This document shows, piece after piece, positions 6,227-53,590 of a DNA stretch of 64,000 nucleotides. The stretch's first letter is position 1. Each line of letters begins with the position of its first letter. A program made the position numbers and the translations under genes. The notes beneath the pieces are model-generated. The model was not told the origin of the DNA and did not search any database. It was given only the letters and a program-made list of their open reading frames with translations. Origin of the DNA: Alphaproteobacteria bacterium (lineage in GTDB: Bacteria > Pseudomonadota > Alphaproteobacteria > SHVV01); contig OZ253470.1 in the NCBI GenBank assembly GCA_965261735.1, forward strand, positions 2,304,001-2,368,000, read 5' to 3'.

Positions 6227-6325
6227 CCCCCTCCCCCTACCCCCTCCCACGAGGGGAGGGGGAATTGTGACGCGATGTCCAGTCGTTAACCCTCCCCCTT
6301 GATGGGGGAGGGTTGGGTGGGGGTG
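6227..6325. repeat. Inverted doublet of C/G-rich hairpin-plus-tail repeat (REPIN-like), copy 1
   Basis: Units 6227-6262 and 6290-6325. The reverse complement aligns with 13294-13397, including the spacer. Confidence 0.85.
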
Positions 6326-12077: not shown

Positions 12078-13265
12078 ATGAAATTCAGTTTTCGCTTTTT
12101 GACACCGGTGCTGGCGGCGATCGGCCTGGCCCTGGCGAGCGCACCGGCGGCGCTGGCCGCGGAAGCCACGGGCGAGCCGATCCGCATTCCGATGATGGAG
12201 AGCTTCAGCGGCGCCGCCGCCGACTGGGGCGAGGACATGTGGACGGGCGCTGTCGCGGCGCAGAAGATCATCAACATGCGCGGCGGCATCAAGGGACGCC
12301 CCCTCGAGTTCTACAAGGCGGACGCGCCCTACGACGACCTGCCGACAGCGGTCTCCATGTTCAAGAAGCTGGCCCGCGACCCTAACGTCACCATGATCTT
12401 CGATGGCGGTGCCACCAGCGTCATCGCCGCGGTCCACGATCTCACGGGCGATGCGAAGCTTCCTCTGTTCGCGTTCTCGTCCGGTGGGTTCTGGCGTATG
12501 GGCCATTTCAATCCGTGGGTGTTCCGCGCCCTGCCGCAGGCCTATACGGCGCTGCCGGTCCTTCTGCCCAAGGCCAAGAAGAAGTTCGGCATCAAGAAAG
12601 CGGCCCTCATCTATACGCATGACGACGAGGCCGAGGTCGCCAACGCCATCGTGTGGCGTGATCTCGCCAAACAAAACGGCATCGAGATAGTCGAGGTCAC
12701 CAACAAGACCAAGGAGACCGACTTCTCAGCCCAGCTCACCCGCGTGAAGGCGGCCAAGGTCGATGCCTTCTTCGTCGCCCTGCAGGCCTTCGACGGCGGC
12801 ACGATGATGGCCCAGGCCCGCGACATGGGCCTGAAGCAGCCCGTCCTCGGCACTATGGGGTCGAGCAACAAGGACTACTGGAAGATGTCGAAGGGCAAGG
12901 TAGCCGAGGAGCACGGCGGCCCGACGATCCTCTACAGTAACTACGACCCGACCGATCCCAGGCCGTACGTTCAGGACATCAAGAAGATGTACAAGGAGCA
13001 TTACGGCACGGATCCGACGACCTGGGCCGCGCTCACCGCGGACGCGGCGTTCGTCACCGCCCAGATCCTCAACCGGGCCACGGACTTGACCCGCGAGGGC
13101 ATTCGCAAGGCCTTCGCCGAAACCGGGGCGATCGAGTCGCTGAGCGGCGTGATCGGCTGGGACGGCTCGGGCGATGCCATCCGTGACTCGGTCCTGTTCG
13201 TCAAGTGGGTGGACGGCAGGCTGGTTCCGGTGCGCGACGAGTACTGGGACGACACCGGTAGCTAG
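12078..13265 (+). CDS. ABC transporter substrate-binding protein, LivJ/LivK-like (orphan)
   Basis: Signal peptide; IN.RGGIKGRPLE and DFSAQLTRVK motifs; GGAGG RBS. Confidence 0.92.
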   Translation: MKFSFRFLTPVLAAIGLALASAPAALAAEATGEPIRIPMMESFSGAAADWGEDMWTGAVAAQKIINMRGGIKGRPLEFYKADAPYDDLPTAVSMFKKLARDPNVTMIFDGGATSVIAAVHDLTGDAKLPLFAFSSGGFWRMGHFNPWVFRALPQAYTALPVLLPKAKKKFGIKKAALIYTHDDEAEVANAIVWRDLAKQNGIEIVEVTNKTKETDFSAQLTRVKAAKVDAFFVALQAFDGGTMMAQARDMGLKQPVLGTMGSSNKDYWKMSKGKVAEEHGGPTILYSNYDPTDPRPYVQDIKKMYKEHYGTDPTTWAALTADAAFVTAQILNRATDLTREGIRKAFAETGAIESLSGVIGWDGSGDAIRDSVLFVKWVDGRLVPVRDEYWDDTGS

Positions 13266-13293
13266 TGTACTTGCTTGGGTTAAGTCTGCGTGT

Positions 13294-13397
13294 CACCCCC
13301 TCCCAACCCTCCCCCATCAACAAGGGGAGGGCCAAGAGTCGGACCTCGCGCCGTAACTCCCCCTCCCCGTGGTGGGAGGGGGTAGGGAGAGGGGGTG
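13294..13397. repeat. Inverted doublet of C/G-rich hairpin-plus-tail repeat, copy 2
   Basis: Units 13294-13331 and 13359-13397; homologous to the reverse complement of 6227-6325. Confidence 0.87.
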
Positions 13398-13525
13398 GCT
13401 AAGGAGTGTCACGCTCCTTGGCAACCAAGGACGAGGACGCGGGCTTGGATTGAACGGCCCCCGGCGGCGCGCGCTTTTATTGAGGCGCGCCGCCGGGGGC
13501 GGCTGCCTTGCGGGAGGGTGCGCCC

Positions 13526-19840: not shown

Positions 19841-20623
19841 TCAGTCGCCGCTGAAGGCACGGAAGGTGCCGTGGGTGAGGTGGTGGAGGAGCGATCCCAG
19901 GAGATCGAAATCGGGGGTCGAGCGCTGCGCGGCCTGCGCCGCCCGCTCGAGCGTGACGCCGGCGGTCAGCGCCAGGAGGAAGGTGAAATCGCCGTTCGCT
20001 AGGCTCTCGTGCCGGACGTGGGCCTGGGGACGAATGACGAGGATTCGCATCGCCGCGCCGGAGGGCTCGATCGCCGGGTCCGGCACCTCACTTCCCTGAT
20101 GCGCCTGCCAAATCCCGTCGACGGCAAAGCGCGAGGCGATGAATGCCGCGGAGGGGTGGAGCTCGAACTTGAGCGCGGCGTAGCTCGCGGGCGGGACGTC
20201 GCGTAGATGCCAGGCCGTGAGGGGTTCGGCGTCGGCGGCGAAGTAGGCGACATTGTGGGCCCATTCGAGGCGTGCGAGGTCAGCGAGAAAGGGCGTGCTG
20301 CGGGCCGGCTCGAAGGCGTCGAGGAAGTCGGCAAAGCGGTCCCCGTAGGCCGAGAGCTGCGGCCTGCGCGGCGGATGAGCGCGGACGTACCGGTATGCGG
20401 CAACGCGGAAATTGGCCGCGCCGACGACTTTGGAGAGCACCGGATAGGCGGCGCCGAGGACCGAGATGAGCGAAGCGAGCGTATTGTTGCGGTAGATCGC
20501 GAGGCGCTCGCCGGCCGCGACGGAGCCGTCGGCGACCAGATCGGTCAGTAAGGCGCCATCCGCGGCCATGCCGTCCGTCTCGAAGGCGGCGCACCGAAAG
20601 GCCTCCTGCAGCTCATGCAGCAT
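19841..20623 (-). CDS. DUF2063 protein (MNIO partner, BufC-like)
   Basis: RLAIYRNN, YP...VVG..NF, YGD.FADFL and LADLARLEWA motifs. Confidence 0.9.
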   Translation of the reverse strand: MLHELQEAFRCAAFETDGMAADGALLTDLVADGSVAAGERLAIYRNNTLASLISVLGAAYPVLSKVVGAANFRVAAYRYVRAHPPRRPQLSAYGDRFADFLDAFEPARSTPFLADLARLEWAHNVAYFAADAEPLTAWHLRDVPPASYAALKFELHPSAAFIASRFAVDGIWQAHQGSEVPDPAIEPSGAAMRILVIRPQAHVRHESLANGDFTFLLALTAGVTLERAAQAAQRSTPDFDLLGSLLHHLTHGTFRAFSGD

Positions 20624-21168
20624 CACGGCCTCGCGCGTGGCTGCGCGCCGCGTCGAGGGCGCCGTCGGCCTGGCGCGCTTCGGCCAGGAGTTCGCCGAGC
20701 GGCGGGATGTTGGTGTCGCGCTCGATGAGGGTTGGTACCGGGCCGAGCCGGCGCAGCGTCGCCTCGAACAATCGCCACACTCGCGAGTCGATCGGCGATC
20801 CGTGGTCGTCGATGAGGACCTCTTCCTCGCCGACCCGCTTGACGGCATGGCCGGCCAGGTGAACCTCGCGGACGGCCTCGCCGGGGATGGCGTGGAGATA
20901 GCGCTCGGCGTCGAACCCCAGGTTCGAGGCGCTGACATGAATGTTGTTGACGTCGAGCAGGAGGGCGCAGCCGGTGCGGCGCACGACCTCGGCGAGGAAC
21001 TCGGGCTCGGGCATCGTCGAGTGGGTGAAGGCTATGTAGGATGAGGGGTTCTCGATCAGGATCTGGCGTGCGAGTCGGTCCTGGGCATTGTCGACATTAC
21101 GGCAAACGACGGCGAGCGCTTCCGCGGTATAGGGGAGCGGCAACAGGTCGTTGAGGTAGATACCATGG
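20613..21168 (-). pseudogene. DUF692 multinuclear non-heme iron enzyme (BufB-like), 5'-truncated by IS1595
   Basis: YLNDLLPLPY, IENPSSY, LLDVNNIHVS, EVHLAGH, IDDHG and LIERD motifs; N-terminal part absent. Confidence 0.9.
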
Positions 21169-22266
21169 CTATCCGGTTTACACCCACACCCACTAGGGCT
21201 AGAATGGGCGCAACCCGGATATAGGGGAGCGCCATGGATGTTCTCGACCGCGCCGATCTCCCATTCCCGCATTCGCTACCCGAGTTCCAGCGACTTTTCC
21301 CCGATGATGCGGCCTGCGCCGCCTACCTGGAGAAAGCCCGCTGGGGAGACGGCTTTGCCTGCCCGCACTGCGGCACGGCGGGAGAGCCGTTCCACTTTGA
21401 AAACCGCCCTGGCGTCCTGCGCTGCCGCAAGTGCCGCCAGAACACCGGGCTGACGGTGGGAACAGTGATGGAGCGTAGCCACACTCCGCTGAACGTCTGG
21501 TTCTGGGCCGCTTATCTGGTCGCCAGTCAGACGCCCGGCATGTCCGCCGTGCAGTTTCAGCGGCAACTTGGTCTTTCGCGCTACGAGACGGCCTTTCAAA
21601 TTCTCCACAAGCTCCGCTCGGGCATGGTGCGGCCCAACCAAGACAGGATCGGTGGACAGCCCAAGAACCATGTTGAGGTGGACGAAACCTGGGTTGGCGG
21701 GCGAACGCGTGGGGAAGGCCGTGGTGTTCACCGCAAGGTTCCCGTCTCCTGTGCCATCGAGGTGCGTCATCGAAAGCCGGGCACCAAGCTCGACAACCGG
21801 AAAGACGGACGCTATGCCGGACGCGTTCGGCTCGCCGTCGTGCTCGACCGTAGCGCCGAGTCGCTCTGTGGGTTCGTCGAGAGCACCGTCGCGCCGCGAT
21901 CGCTGATCGTTACTGACGATTGGAGCGGCTATGCTGGCCTCGGTAAGCGCGGCTATGAGCACTTCGCTGTTGCCGAGTGTGGTGATCCAGAGGTTGCCGA
22001 GCAATACCTGCCGATCATCCATCTGGTTTTCGCCAACTTGAAGACGTGGCTGATCGGTATCCACCACGGCGTTAGCCACCAGCACCTACAAGCCTACCTC
22101 AACGAGTTCACCTTCCGCTTCAACAGGCGGTTCTACCCGTTCAACGCCTTCCGCTCATTGCTCGGCATCGCGGGCGACACCTCTGCTCCAACCTATGCCG
22201 AGCTTTACTCGGGAGAGTGGCGGCACCCTACATGTAGCGGTCATGGGCGTTAACCGGATAGGCAAG
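21169..22266 (+). mobile_element. IS1595-family (ISSod11 group) copy 2; left TIR clipped
   Basis: Right TIR TGGGCGTTAACCGGATAGGCAAG; left end lacks the outer CTTGC; no TSD. Confidence 0.93.
21234..22253 (+). CDS. IS1595-family transposase (intact ORF)
   Basis: Zn ribbon CPHC..CRKC; VEVDE, TDD and IHLVF (DDH type); YLNEFTFRFNRR. Confidence 0.95.
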   Translation: MDVLDRADLPFPHSLPEFQRLFPDDAACAAYLEKARWGDGFACPHCGTAGEPFHFENRPGVLRCRKCRQNTGLTVGTVMERSHTPLNVWFWAAYLVASQTPGMSAVQFQRQLGLSRYETAFQILHKLRSGMVRPNQDRIGGQPKNHVEVDETWVGGRTRGEGRGVHRKVPVSCAIEVRHRKPGTKLDNRKDGRYAGRVRLAVVLDRSAESLCGFVESTVAPRSLIVTDDWSGYAGLGKRGYEHFAVAECGDPEVAEQYLPIIHLVFANLKTWLIGIHHGVSHQHLQAYLNEFTFRFNRRFYPFNAFRSLLGIAGDTSAPTYAELYSGEWRHPTCSGHGR

Positions 22267-22298
22267 CAAGCAATTACTAAGGTGCAAGCAATTACTAA
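22266..22298. repeat. 15-bp direct repeat GCAAGCAATTACTAA x2
   Basis: Copies at 22266-22280 and 22284-22298. Confidence 0.8.
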
Positions 22299-22313
22299 AC
22301 TGTTCGGCTTTTA

Positions 22314-22357
22314 ATGCCTAAGCGCACCGACATCGAATCGATTCTGATCGTCGGCGC
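22314..22357 (+). repeat. Duplicate of the first 44 bp of carB
   Basis: First 35 nt identical and 41/44 overall with 23098-23141 ([14 protein letters not shown] vs [14 protein letters not shown]). Confidence 0.92.
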
Positions 22358-22368
22358 AGTTGCCGAGT

Positions 22369-22406
22369 CCCCTCCCCCCTTGTGGGGGAGGGTTAGGGAG
22401 GGGGGG
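22369..22406. repeat. Hairpin-plus-tail repeat, left of the DUF559 gene
   Basis: CCCCTCCCCCCTTGTGGGGGAGGGTTAGGGAGGGGGGG. Confidence 0.88.
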
Positions 22407-22417
22407 ATGATTAACCA

Positions 22418-22750
22418 ATGGTCAGCAAAATCGCTCGGCAGCTCCGCACGAACCTCACCGAGGCCGATCAGCGGCTATGGTCACGGCTCCGGCGCCGACA
22501 ACTCGGCGGATGTTATTTTCGGCGCCAAGCCCCTATCGGAGATTACATCGTCGACTTTGCCTGCTTCGAGCGGAATCTCGTGGTCGAGGTGGACGGCGGC
22601 CAGCATACGGAGCGGGTGGCGCAAGACACAAAAAGGTCCGAGTGGCTCGAGAGCCAGGGCTACAGGGTCCTTCGCTTTTGGAACAATGACGTGCTCCAGA
22701 ACGTGGACGGGGTCGTGGACACGATTCTGGCGGCGCTTCGGGAACCATAA
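22418..22750 (+). CDS. DUF559 (Vsr-like, PD-(D/E)XK) endonuclease
   Basis: ARQLR.N.TEA...LW..LR, FRRQAPIG.YIVDF, EVDGGQH and GYRVLRFWN motifs. Confidence 0.93.
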   Translation: MVSKIARQLRTNLTEADQRLWSRLRRRQLGGCYFRRQAPIGDYIVDFACFERNLVVEVDGGQHTERVAQDTKRSEWLESQGYRVLRFWNNDVLQNVDGVVDTILAALREP

Positions 22751-22753
22751 GAA

Positions 22754-22793
22754 CACCCCCTCCCTAACCCTCCCCCATCAACAAGGGGGAGGG
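22754..22793. repeat. Tail-plus-hairpin repeat, right of the DUF559 gene
   Basis: CACCCCCTCCCTAACCCTCCCCCATCAACAAGGGGGAGGG; inverted relative to 22369-22406; same ATCAACAA loop as 13294-13331. Confidence 0.88.
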
Positions 22794-22819
22794 AGCAGGC
22801 TCTGACGTCGCCCGCGACT

Positions 22820-23041
22820 TTATTCCCTGCGTTCAAAGTCGAGCGGCGTCGTGGTACCTGTGCGCACTTCCGCCAAGGCTTCATCGGCGAGCCTAGCCAG
22901 AACGTCCTGAGAATCAGCGAATGCCTTGGCCCAGCGCTTTTCCGAACGCAGTTCATCGAGTATGAAGACGGCTAGCTCGCACTGCTCTTCGGGCGCAAGC
23001 TTGGCGGCTTCGTCTAGAACCTTCTTCAGCAACGTGTTCAT
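22820..23041 (-). CDS. Small antitoxin-like protein (orphan)
   Basis: MNTLLKK..KL..EEQ...[23 protein letters not shown]...G.T.PLD pattern, recalled from proteins paired with RelE/ParE-like toxins. Confidence 0.65.
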
Positions 23042-23097
23042 GTGGCGCGGTATACAGCGACACACTACCCCCCGCGAGCGATAGGGGGGCGATGGCC

Positions 23098-26346
<3,249 letters not shown>

Positions 26347-53448: not shown

Positions 53449-53590
53449 CCCCCCTCCCTAACCCTGCCCCACGAAGGGGGGAGGGGATGTTGGAGCCGGT
53501 CGGGCCGGCGCGCTACGATCGCCCGTGGACAACGAACCCTCCGAGCTTCGTCACCCTCCCCCTTGATGGGGGAGGGCTGGGGCGGGGGTG
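53449..53590. repeat. Inverted doublet of C/G-rich hairpin-plus-tail repeat, copy 3 (longer, different spacer)
   Basis: Units 53449-53486 and 53554-53590; the second begins CCCTCCCCCTTGATGGGGGAGGG, as at 6290. Confidence 0.85.

Follow-up and report, generated by a model that had tools for sequence, protein, structure and literature searches.

A DUF559 nuclease gene framed by inverted triplex-type repeats in an alphaproteobacterial genome, and the recurrence of this layout across bacterial phyla

BoxC/PIT/triplex repeats are present in hundreds of bacterial genomes and have been tied to genome instability. Their description dates from the 1990s, according to the introduction of Holder et al. 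(2015, PMC4666352). In repeats of the BoxC/PIT/TMECO group, three 9-nt stems, one of C and then two of G, are separated by loops of 3-6 nt and 3 nt, and the repeats fold in vitro into a class II purine-motif triplex (Holder et al. 2015, PMC4666352). In E. coli, a type A unit is always paired with a type B unit, and the coordinates in Table 1 of the same paper give the five TMECO pairs as (+)(-). Its authors state that mobility functions near the motifs were never found; the text of the paper mentions neither ycjD nor an endonuclease, and its supplementary tables could list ycjD as a neighbour (PMC4666352).

Here, we describe a small cassette in which a gene of the DUF559 nuclease family stands between two inverted repeats that appear to be of this kind. 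It occupies 22369-22793 of a 64,000-nt stretch of DNA, referred to as the window (positions 2304001-2368000 of contig OZ253470.1), from an Alphaproteobacteria bacterium whose single-contig genome (5.03 Mb, 65.7% G+C, 98% complete) is labelled G000 among the genomes compared. DUF559 is a large family to which, to our knowledge, almost no role has been assigned. An earlier note on the window had described the locus as a candidate REPIN-like system. We judge it an even call that the locus is instead a member of a widespread family of selfish cassettes, each made of a DUF559 nuclease gene and the inverted triplex-type repeats that form its ends.

The cassette measures 425 bp, and the coordinates given in the earlier note correspond to the outer edges of the structure. 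At its left end, a + strand unit (22370..22404; 22369-22408 in the earlier note) begins with a C-arm and, after a 5-nt loop, the complementary G-arm; a TTA loop then leads to the mirrored G-tail, and both arms and the tail are 9 nt long. This is followed by the nuclease gene (22418..22750, + strand, 110 aa; PF04480, E=1.2e-42) and by the right end unit (22756..22793, - strand), an inverted copy of the left one with an 8-nt first loop that reads ATCAACAA on the + strand. Arms (CCCTCCCCC/GGGGGAGGG), second loop (TTA) and tail (GGGAGGGGG) are identical between the two ends. The hairpins lie at the outside and the tails point toward the gene, with 351 nt separating the units; as DNA, the left unit forms a 9-bp Watson-Crick hairpin (-11.2 kcal/mol). 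The nuclease is the sole open reading frame (ORF) of the cassette with a family match, no transposase of a known class was found in the cassette (Pfam), and no Rfam family was matched within 20000-25000 at E up to 1. The observation made in the earlier note is confirmed: it had reported eight units in the window, two of them flanking the DUF559 gene with hairpins outermost, and a loop common to the right unit and the unit at 13294. Our scanner returns exactly 8 units, the flanking pair is oriented as described, and ATCAACAA is found at both 22777-22784 and 13316-13323.

The scanner required a 9-nt C-arm to be followed by a G-arm complementary to it and by a tail mirroring that G-arm, with ≤1 mismatch per relation, and the reversed unit pattern served as a chance control for its counts. 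It found 51 units in the genome (22 on +, 29 on -), in all of which a C-rich 9-nt arm is complementary to a G-rich 9-nt arm with ≤1 mismatch, and the reversed pattern matched nowhere in 41 genomes and once in 201. Besides the cassette ends, which are 35-38 nt long, the window contains units at 6229-6262(-), 6290-6323(+), 13296-13331(-), 13359-13393(+), 53450-53485(-) and 53554-53588(+). Two arm types were distinguished, one with CCCTCCCCC, GGGGGAGGG and the tail GGG(A or T)GGGGG, the other with CCCCCTCCC, GGGAGGGGG and the tail GGGGGAGGG. Each arm type has its own matching tail, and the A position of the G-arm is therefore mirrored in the tail. The first loop is 5 nt long in most units and 7-8 nt in three, including the right cassette end. 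In 100 shuffles, the 8-mer CCCTCCCC came up 3.9 times on average and 9 times at most, whereas the window holds 15 copies. A genome-wide tally by orientation, as the earlier note had envisaged, shows that the (+)(-) framing of the DUF559 gene is unique at close range: of the 23 neighbouring unit pairs <3 kb, none apart from the cassette is a (+)(-) pair <1.4 kb, and the TTA loop of the cassette ends recurs in only two other units of the genome.

To keep a test of the mirrored tail non-circular, units in loci related to the cassette were detected by their hairpin alone, which was present at 136 of 152 gene flanks. For 102 hairpins with an asymmetric G-arm, the 9-mer that follows fitted a mirror of the G-arm better than a direct copy in 63 cases, with the reverse in 8 and a tie in 31; scores of ≥8/9 were reached 69 times by the mirror, 23 times by the direct copy and 0 times by the 5'-side control. 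The earlier description of a hairpin with a G-type tail thus stands as far as both parts are present, and needs amending in that the tail is a mirrored G-arm, as in a triplex-type motif. Judged by this sequence design of arms and mirrored tail, the nearest family is BoxC/PIT/TMECO, of which the units appear to be a sequence variant, and the name REPIN-like should be dropped. A G-quadruplex formed by the four G-runs is also possible.

The layout of the cassette is conserved across phyla. Homologues were surveyed with one genome per species, using the best 80 of 468 stretches that encode relatives of the nuclease, 76 of which had both flanks. By the strict scanner, 41 of these 76 loci have cassette-oriented units on both sides of the gene, 6 have just the upstream unit, 12 just the downstream one and 17 neither, with a background of 0.21 units per kb elsewhere within the loci. 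Most of the 17 loci without a scanner match do have the hairpin and tail, with an extra GC-rich hairpin within the second loop. In 67 of the 76 loci, a model-free score for flanking inverted repeats was higher than the 95th percentile of a displaced control. Hosts include Alpha-, Beta-, Gamma- and Deltaproteobacteria, Chloroflexota, Nitrospirota, Planctomycetota, Verrucomicrobiota and others. Within 40 relatives, 19 further matches were obtained (one of them the window's own gene), and most of the DUF559 genes were framed in the same way, with lineage-specific arms. Phyla are intermixed with strong support in the protein tree, for example Chloroflexia with Calditrichales, which points to horizontal transfer. 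Clustering of arm types on this tree (57 changes, shuffled mean 63.9) was considered as a sign of co-evolution and was not counted because related hosts share labels.

A parallel is known from E. coli, where strains without the eefRABCD operon carry ycjD, a DUF559 gene, in its place between fabI and sapF (PMC12817139). In E. coli K-12 (L021 5205-5420), a degenerate C-arm/G-arm hairpin is located at the ycjD stop codon. Behind it come a second copy of ~40 nt from the 3' end of ycjD and TMECO unit 9 of the Holder table, which is oriented like ycjD and lies ~170 nt downstream of it. From its sequence, this region looks like a decayed or rearranged cassette end.

The boundaries of the cassette were examined by comparison with the nearest relative genus (G002, locus L103), whose carB N-terminus is 86% identical. 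There, carA and carB are separated by an 87-nt duplicate taken from the carB start and by minus-strand genes for a toxin and an antitoxin, in this order from the carA side. As the earlier note's proposed comparison of empty and filled sites would have it, the orthologous site in G002 lacks the cassette. Homology between the two genomes stops at ~22367 and restarts at ~22804. The cassette, with ≤2 further nt to its left and ~10 nt to its right, takes the place of ~316 nt of G002, in which almost the whole toxin gene and what is left of the carB fragment are contained. Because G002 has no units by the scanner pattern and homology breaks at these points, the gene and both units arrived together in a segment that ends at the hairpins. 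The cassette appears, from these sequences, to behave as a discrete unit moving between genomes on an evolutionary time scale.

Traces of the displaced arrangement persist on both sides. The first 44 nt of carB are duplicated at 22314..22357 (+ strand, 93% identical to 23098-23141), adjoining the left end of the cassette, and this duplicate is a relic of an older toxin-antitoxin insertion into the carB start. On the other side, an orphan antitoxin-like ORF (22820..23065, - strand) has a weak match to PF09720 (E=0.0067, under the curated cut-off) and shares 63% identity with the G002 antitoxin ORF, whose toxin partner occupies the place taken by the cassette in the window. Another small minus-strand ORF was seen at the same carB spot in G005 (L107), with a short carB-start duplicate, whereas in other family members carA immediately precedes carB. 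Judging from these arrangements, the carB start seems to be a recurrent landing site.

In metagenome contigs from four studies, the sequencing data examined here, the cassette is in place with identity ≥99%. One 164-nt contig (run X4) joins 23097 back to 22314 with no mismatches and runs on into the left unit. This joint falls in the 35-nt identical part of the carB duplication, away from the cassette ends, and could reflect a tandem copy, a 784-bp circle formed via the 44-nt direct repeat, or a k-mer assembly artefact. A joint of 22404 to 22753 that skips the gene was also considered; it occurs in one contig with just 24 nt on one side, probably stems from another organism's unit pair, and was rejected. 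In addition, the contigs of one study (X4, depth 5) have a G-to-A change at 22680 that creates a stop at W88 of the DUF559 gene, which may be a decaying allele in one population or, given a single contig at depth 5, may be an error.

The encoded protein is a confident member of its family (144.6 bits for PF04480 against a cut-off of 20.6) and matches PDB 3HRL, a structural-genomics "endonuclease-like protein", at E=1.1e-27. An AlphaFold (AF2) model built on 45 sequences has a pLDDT of 88, and its best Foldseek matches are 3HRL (TM 0.72/0.84), the catalytic domain of I-Bth0305I (TM 0.68/0.75-0.77) and Vsr 1CW0 (TMq 0.65). Residues D46, E57, D59 and H63 are invariant in 45/45 aligned sequences, from which it follows that selection keeps the gene family active as a nuclease. 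These four are the putative catalytic residues, as judged by analogy to Vsr and to the EDxHD family (PMC3239194). The genome also encodes a canonical C5 methyltransferase and Vsr pair (dcm-vsr) and a second C5 methyltransferase (1930298-1931579 and 326944-328080); the second methyltransferase was matched in two pieces, is possibly interrupted and has no adjacent Vsr.

Repeat abundance and DUF559 were compared across 201 genomes of the class (≥90% complete, 184 genera), with a strong DUF559 match defined as E below 1e-20; one of these genomes, G045, is flagged unpublished and was counted as DUF559-negative. Strong DUF559 matches were found in 22/29 genomes with ≥5 units and in 26/172 with <5 units (odds ratio 17.6, Fisher p 1e-10). 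At a threshold of 15 units, which takes out the contribution of the cassette's own two units, the corresponding numbers were 16/20 and 32/181 (odds ratio 18.6). The unit pattern misses some arm variants (e.g., those of genomes G019 and G035), and some of the DUF559 negatives may be false, because the PF04480 search did not match the control E. coli despite its ycjD being annotated as DUF559. The correlation that the earlier note had suggested checking is thus seen as an enrichment, with four very repeat-rich genomes (discussed below) that have no DUF559 match. In line with the earlier note, no RAYT partner was found: the PF01797 profile had 0 matches in this genome, while it matched in 6/14 genomes used as a control, and it had none in five repeat-rich relatives; G001 likewise has no RAYT match.

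The remaining six units of the window form three intergenic doublets with a geometry the reverse of that of the cassette, tails outward and hairpins inward, as the earlier note had reported. Doublet 1 (6229..6323; - then +) lies upstream of a luciferase-like monooxygenase gene, combines arm types CCCCCTCCC and CCCTCCCCC across a 27-nt spacer, and is stable as single-stranded DNA (-33.4 kcal/mol, z = -3.8). Doublet 2 (approximately 13262..13440 with its outer inverted ends included) also has a 27-nt spacer, and its start coincides with the stop codon of a gene for a periplasmic binding protein. Doublet 3 (53450..53588), between a carbamoyltransferase gene and a GDSL-like gene, is atypical in that both units are of the CCCTCCCCC type and the spacer is 68 nt long; its left unit has the TTA loop of the cassette ends. 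A DNA search of G002 for the sites of doublets 1 and 2 gave no match and was hence uninformative on empty sites.

Among adjacent unit pairs <3 kb in the genome, 19 are (-)(+), 3 are (+)(-) and 1 is (-)(-). Most of the 19 (-)(+) doublets pair one CCCCCTCCC unit with one CCCTCCCCC unit, and 15 of them have a spacer of 24-29 nt. Their alignment shows that the doublet is the core of a ~165-bp repeat in which the spacer and outer flanks are conserved and which has outer inverted ends beginning CTAGTAC. The (-)(+) form was also found in G001, G006, G041, G144 and G192, and G011 has (+)(-) pairs. Apart from the cassette, the two other (+)(-) pairs in the genome are 1.5 and 1.9 kb apart and lie around the gene for an MBL-fold protein and those for two EamA transporters; these are the genes between closely spaced doublets, and the idea of a second nuclease there was rejected. 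A BLAST comparison of the cassette region with the genome showed similarity confined to the 38-40-nt units, with one exception: ~18 nt past the right hairpin weakly resemble the doublet spacer (58 nt at 84%, unit included).

The distribution of units has several further features. The genome has 30 unit loci, all at 0.74-3.94 Mb, and the other 36% of the chromosome has none; this unit-free arc contains the cumulative GC-skew maximum, the skew being too weak for a reliable placement of origin or terminus. The window contains 4 unit loci where 0.38 would be expected. Arrays were seen in related genomes, with five alternating units (-)(+)(-)(+)(-) ~115 nt apart at G001:C5:858879-859358 and four direct (+) units with a 152-nt period at G151:C1:390735-391223. 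At three loci (G006:C118:2429-2475, G006:C45:354-400 and G144:C4:396301-396347), a single hairpin has mirrored tails on both sides and is matched on both strands, which may be a collapsed form of the tails-outward doublet.

An insertion sequence (IS) of the IS1595 family (21163..22266, + strand; PF12762, PF12760) lies 104 nt upstream of the cassette and is present in 94 full-length copies of ~99% identity, with many fragments besides. It appears to have truncated the 5' end of a gene for an MbnB/TglH/ChrH-like RiPP-modifying enzyme (20613-21272, - strand), which covers profile positions 95-260 only. Termini of this IS were found ≤120 nt from 5 unit loci (6 including the window's own) against 0.68 expected. 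As examples, an IS at genome 2141407-2142568 lies within the outer end of a doublet with the 8-bp duplication CTTGGTTG, and at genome 2865616-2866838 a doublet is split by an IS. Doublets were considered as miniature derivatives of this family and rejected, as the IS ends are unlike the doublet ends. As for current activity of the cassette system, of which no sign was seen, doublet units are ~82-95% alike by BLAST, compared with 99% for the IS copies.

How such a cassette might spread can be outlined as follows. The nuclease would recognise the unit, probably in a hairpin or triplex form that extrudes from supercoiled or single-stranded DNA, and would cut at the hairpin-side edge of the unit. 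The resulting breaks would feed host repair, through which the cassette could be copied or relocated and resident DNA could be replaced. Solo units and doublets with the same arms would act as substrates in trans, and units would therefore accumulate while the gene is present and persist after its loss. The layout and its recurrence, the cassette boundaries, the intact active-site residues, the co-occurrence and the mixing of phyla are observed, whereas recognition of the unit, its cleavage and a part for the enzyme in spreading doublets are steps that we infer. The broadest form of the proposal, in which DUF559 would be the missing trans-acting partner of BoxC/PIT/triplex repeats, structure-specific and spreading both its own cassette and gene-less units, is put forward tentatively, as something that falls somewhat short of probable.

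Several observations weigh against these proposals. The genome holds a single DUF559 gene (PF04480 profile search, with tblastn using the window protein giving a next match of E=1.2 and none near a unit), and a whole-genome tblastn search found no DUF559 pseudogene relics beside solo units. The 19 doublets have a geometry opposite to that of the cassette, with a conserved spacer and outer inverted ends of their own. Among the 20 genomes with ≥15 units, four have no DUF559 match (G001, 95 units; G192, 98; G144, 51; G056, 37), and in G001, a member of the same family, searches with the window protein, with the Pfam model and with a protein of its own genus all came back empty. No target-site duplication or other direct repeat was found around the cassette, and no convincing excision joint in the metagenome contigs of the four studies. 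DMS footprinting by Holder et al. (2015, PMC4666352) failed to detect the triplex in vivo, and Caulobacter VsrA, a DUF559 protein, belongs to a damage pathway linked to cytosine methylation (PMC12907096).

These points lead to the principal alternative, which we consider rather unlikely: units and doublets form an independent repeat family, and DUF559 is an ordinary Vsr-like nuclease of a repair or restriction type whose gene tends to lie with them, often captured between units or inserted next to them. The units would then be small elements once moved by a transposase that is now absent, or unstable DNA driven by its structure. The ~165-bp doublet element, with its CTAGTAC outer ends and a spacer unrelated to the cassette, fits this, as do the 7/29 repeat-rich genomes without DUF559 and the two genera in which DUF559 varies while unit counts stay high (units/DUF559 genes of 95/0 in G001 and 48/3 in G006; 98/0 in G192 and 91/2 in G041). 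It also accommodates the ordinary genes (an MBL-fold hydrolase and two EamA transporters) bracketed by doublets 1.5-1.9 kb apart, and the tie of VsrA to cytosine methylation also speaks for it, as does the second C5 methyltransferase here that lacks an adjacent Vsr. However, the canonical dcm-vsr pair is already present in this genome, and chance co-location leaves unexplained why 41/76 loci have units on both sides in a fixed orientation within ~100 nt against the low background, and why the two cassette ends share arms, second loop and tail. Nor does it account for the arrival of the cassette with both units at a site that is unit-free in G002, and no full-length element combining the doublet outer ends with a transposase was found in this genome.

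An improbable explanation is that the units are cis-acting terminators or insulators of a potentially harmful nuclease gene, with the G-tail acting as or hiding a ribosome-binding site and with no role in mobility. In its favour, the left tail, GGGAGGGGGGG, is similar to a ribosome-binding site and stops 11 nt short of the start codon. The RNA could also switch, since in the centroid fold the C-arm is paired to the tail and not to the G-arm, and no sigma-70-like promoter was detected within 22100-23200. Set against this, the inverted unit on the far side of the gene has no obvious role in expression, the mirrored tail is kept at both ends, 49/51 units of the genome are far from the gene, and the E. 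coli elements had no promoter or terminator activity in an earlier study cited in PMC4666352. Very improbable, and largely refuted, is the interpretation of the earlier note, in which the doublets were end-to-end junctions, circular intermediates or non-autonomous (deletion) derivatives of the cassette, together with the alternative of a true REPIN population with a RAYT elsewhere. A right-type unit, a spacer and a left-type unit do reproduce the geometry of a head-to-tail junction, ~18 nt past the right hairpin recall the doublet spacer, and one metagenome contig joins 23097 to 22314. But the sequence outside the doublet tails is unlike the gene ends, spacer and outer ends are conserved in at least 15 doublets, and the doublets combine CCCCCTCCC and CCCTCCCCC units while both cassette ends are CCCTCCCCC. 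The doublet is a ~165-bp element of its own; the contig joint lies within the 44-nt carB duplication, off the cassette ends, and may be a k-mer artefact, and PF01797 is unmatched in the genome.

If the repeats and DUF559 belong together, two orphan families, one of repeats and one of nucleases, would each account for the other, and a simple kind of selfish element would be defined. In the broadest form of the proposal, this would be a class of mobile DNA that needs just a Vsr-fold nuclease and host repair, without a transposase or recombinase. The replacement of resident DNA, here of a toxin gene and in E. coli of an efflux operon, suggests that such cassettes shape gene content.

The repeats and the protein family are each known, and their pairing was not found in the published literature searched. 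Compared with BoxC/PIT/TMECO as described in PMC4666352, the units here share the overall design, with a second loop of 2-3 nt that at the cassette ends is TTA as in E. coli type A, and they are likewise multi-copy, intergenic, often arranged as inverted pairs of two subtypes and uneven along the chromosome, as in E. coli K-12 too. They differ in their arms, CCCTCCCCC or CCCCCTCCC here and CCCTC(T/G)CCC in E. coli, and the G-arms (GGGGGAGGG or GGGAGGGGG) depart from the GGGNGAGGG arms of the strict TMECO consensus. In addition, the first loop of three units (7-8 nt) is beyond the published 3-6 nt, pairs are (-)(+) with tails outward, unlike the five (+)(-) pairs of E. coli, and two units frame a nuclease gene.

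REP/REPIN-RAYT systems offer a second parallel, as they too consist of short palindromic inverted pairs between genes and of a single-copy gene flanked by the repeats that it supposedly serves; the 19 (-)(+) doublets, and the folding of doublet 1, resemble REPINs in particular. The enzyme here has a Vsr-fold PD-(D/E)xK-type nuclease domain, not an HUH domain, and the units have a third, mirrored arm. PF01797 is unmatched here. RAYTs are mostly inherited vertically, whereas the DUF559 tree mixes phyla. Insertion sequences and transposons differ in having a transposase of a known class and, at the insertion, a target-site duplication, neither of which was detected at the cassette. Vsr and VsrA share the fold and family, and VsrA, with its DUF559 domain, is unlinked to its methyltransferase gene (PMC12907096). 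In contrast to the cassette gene, the canonical Vsr of this genome lies beside a C5 methyltransferase, and repair genes are not expected within inverted repeats or in the place of resident DNA.

The EDxHD homing endonuclease I-Bth0305I is similar to the modelled protein in its catalytic fold (Foldseek TM 0.68-0.77, probability 1.0) and, under the reading proposed here, would be similar in its way of life, as a selfish gene whose product cuts beside its own insertion site and which spreads via break repair (PMC3239194). I-Bth0305I is encoded in a group I intron of phage recA, has extra DNA-binding domains and recognises a 14-bp pseudopalindrome site (PMC3239194), whereas the cassette encodes a bare 110-aa domain, lies outside any intron or intein and is bounded by structured repeats that are also found without the gene.

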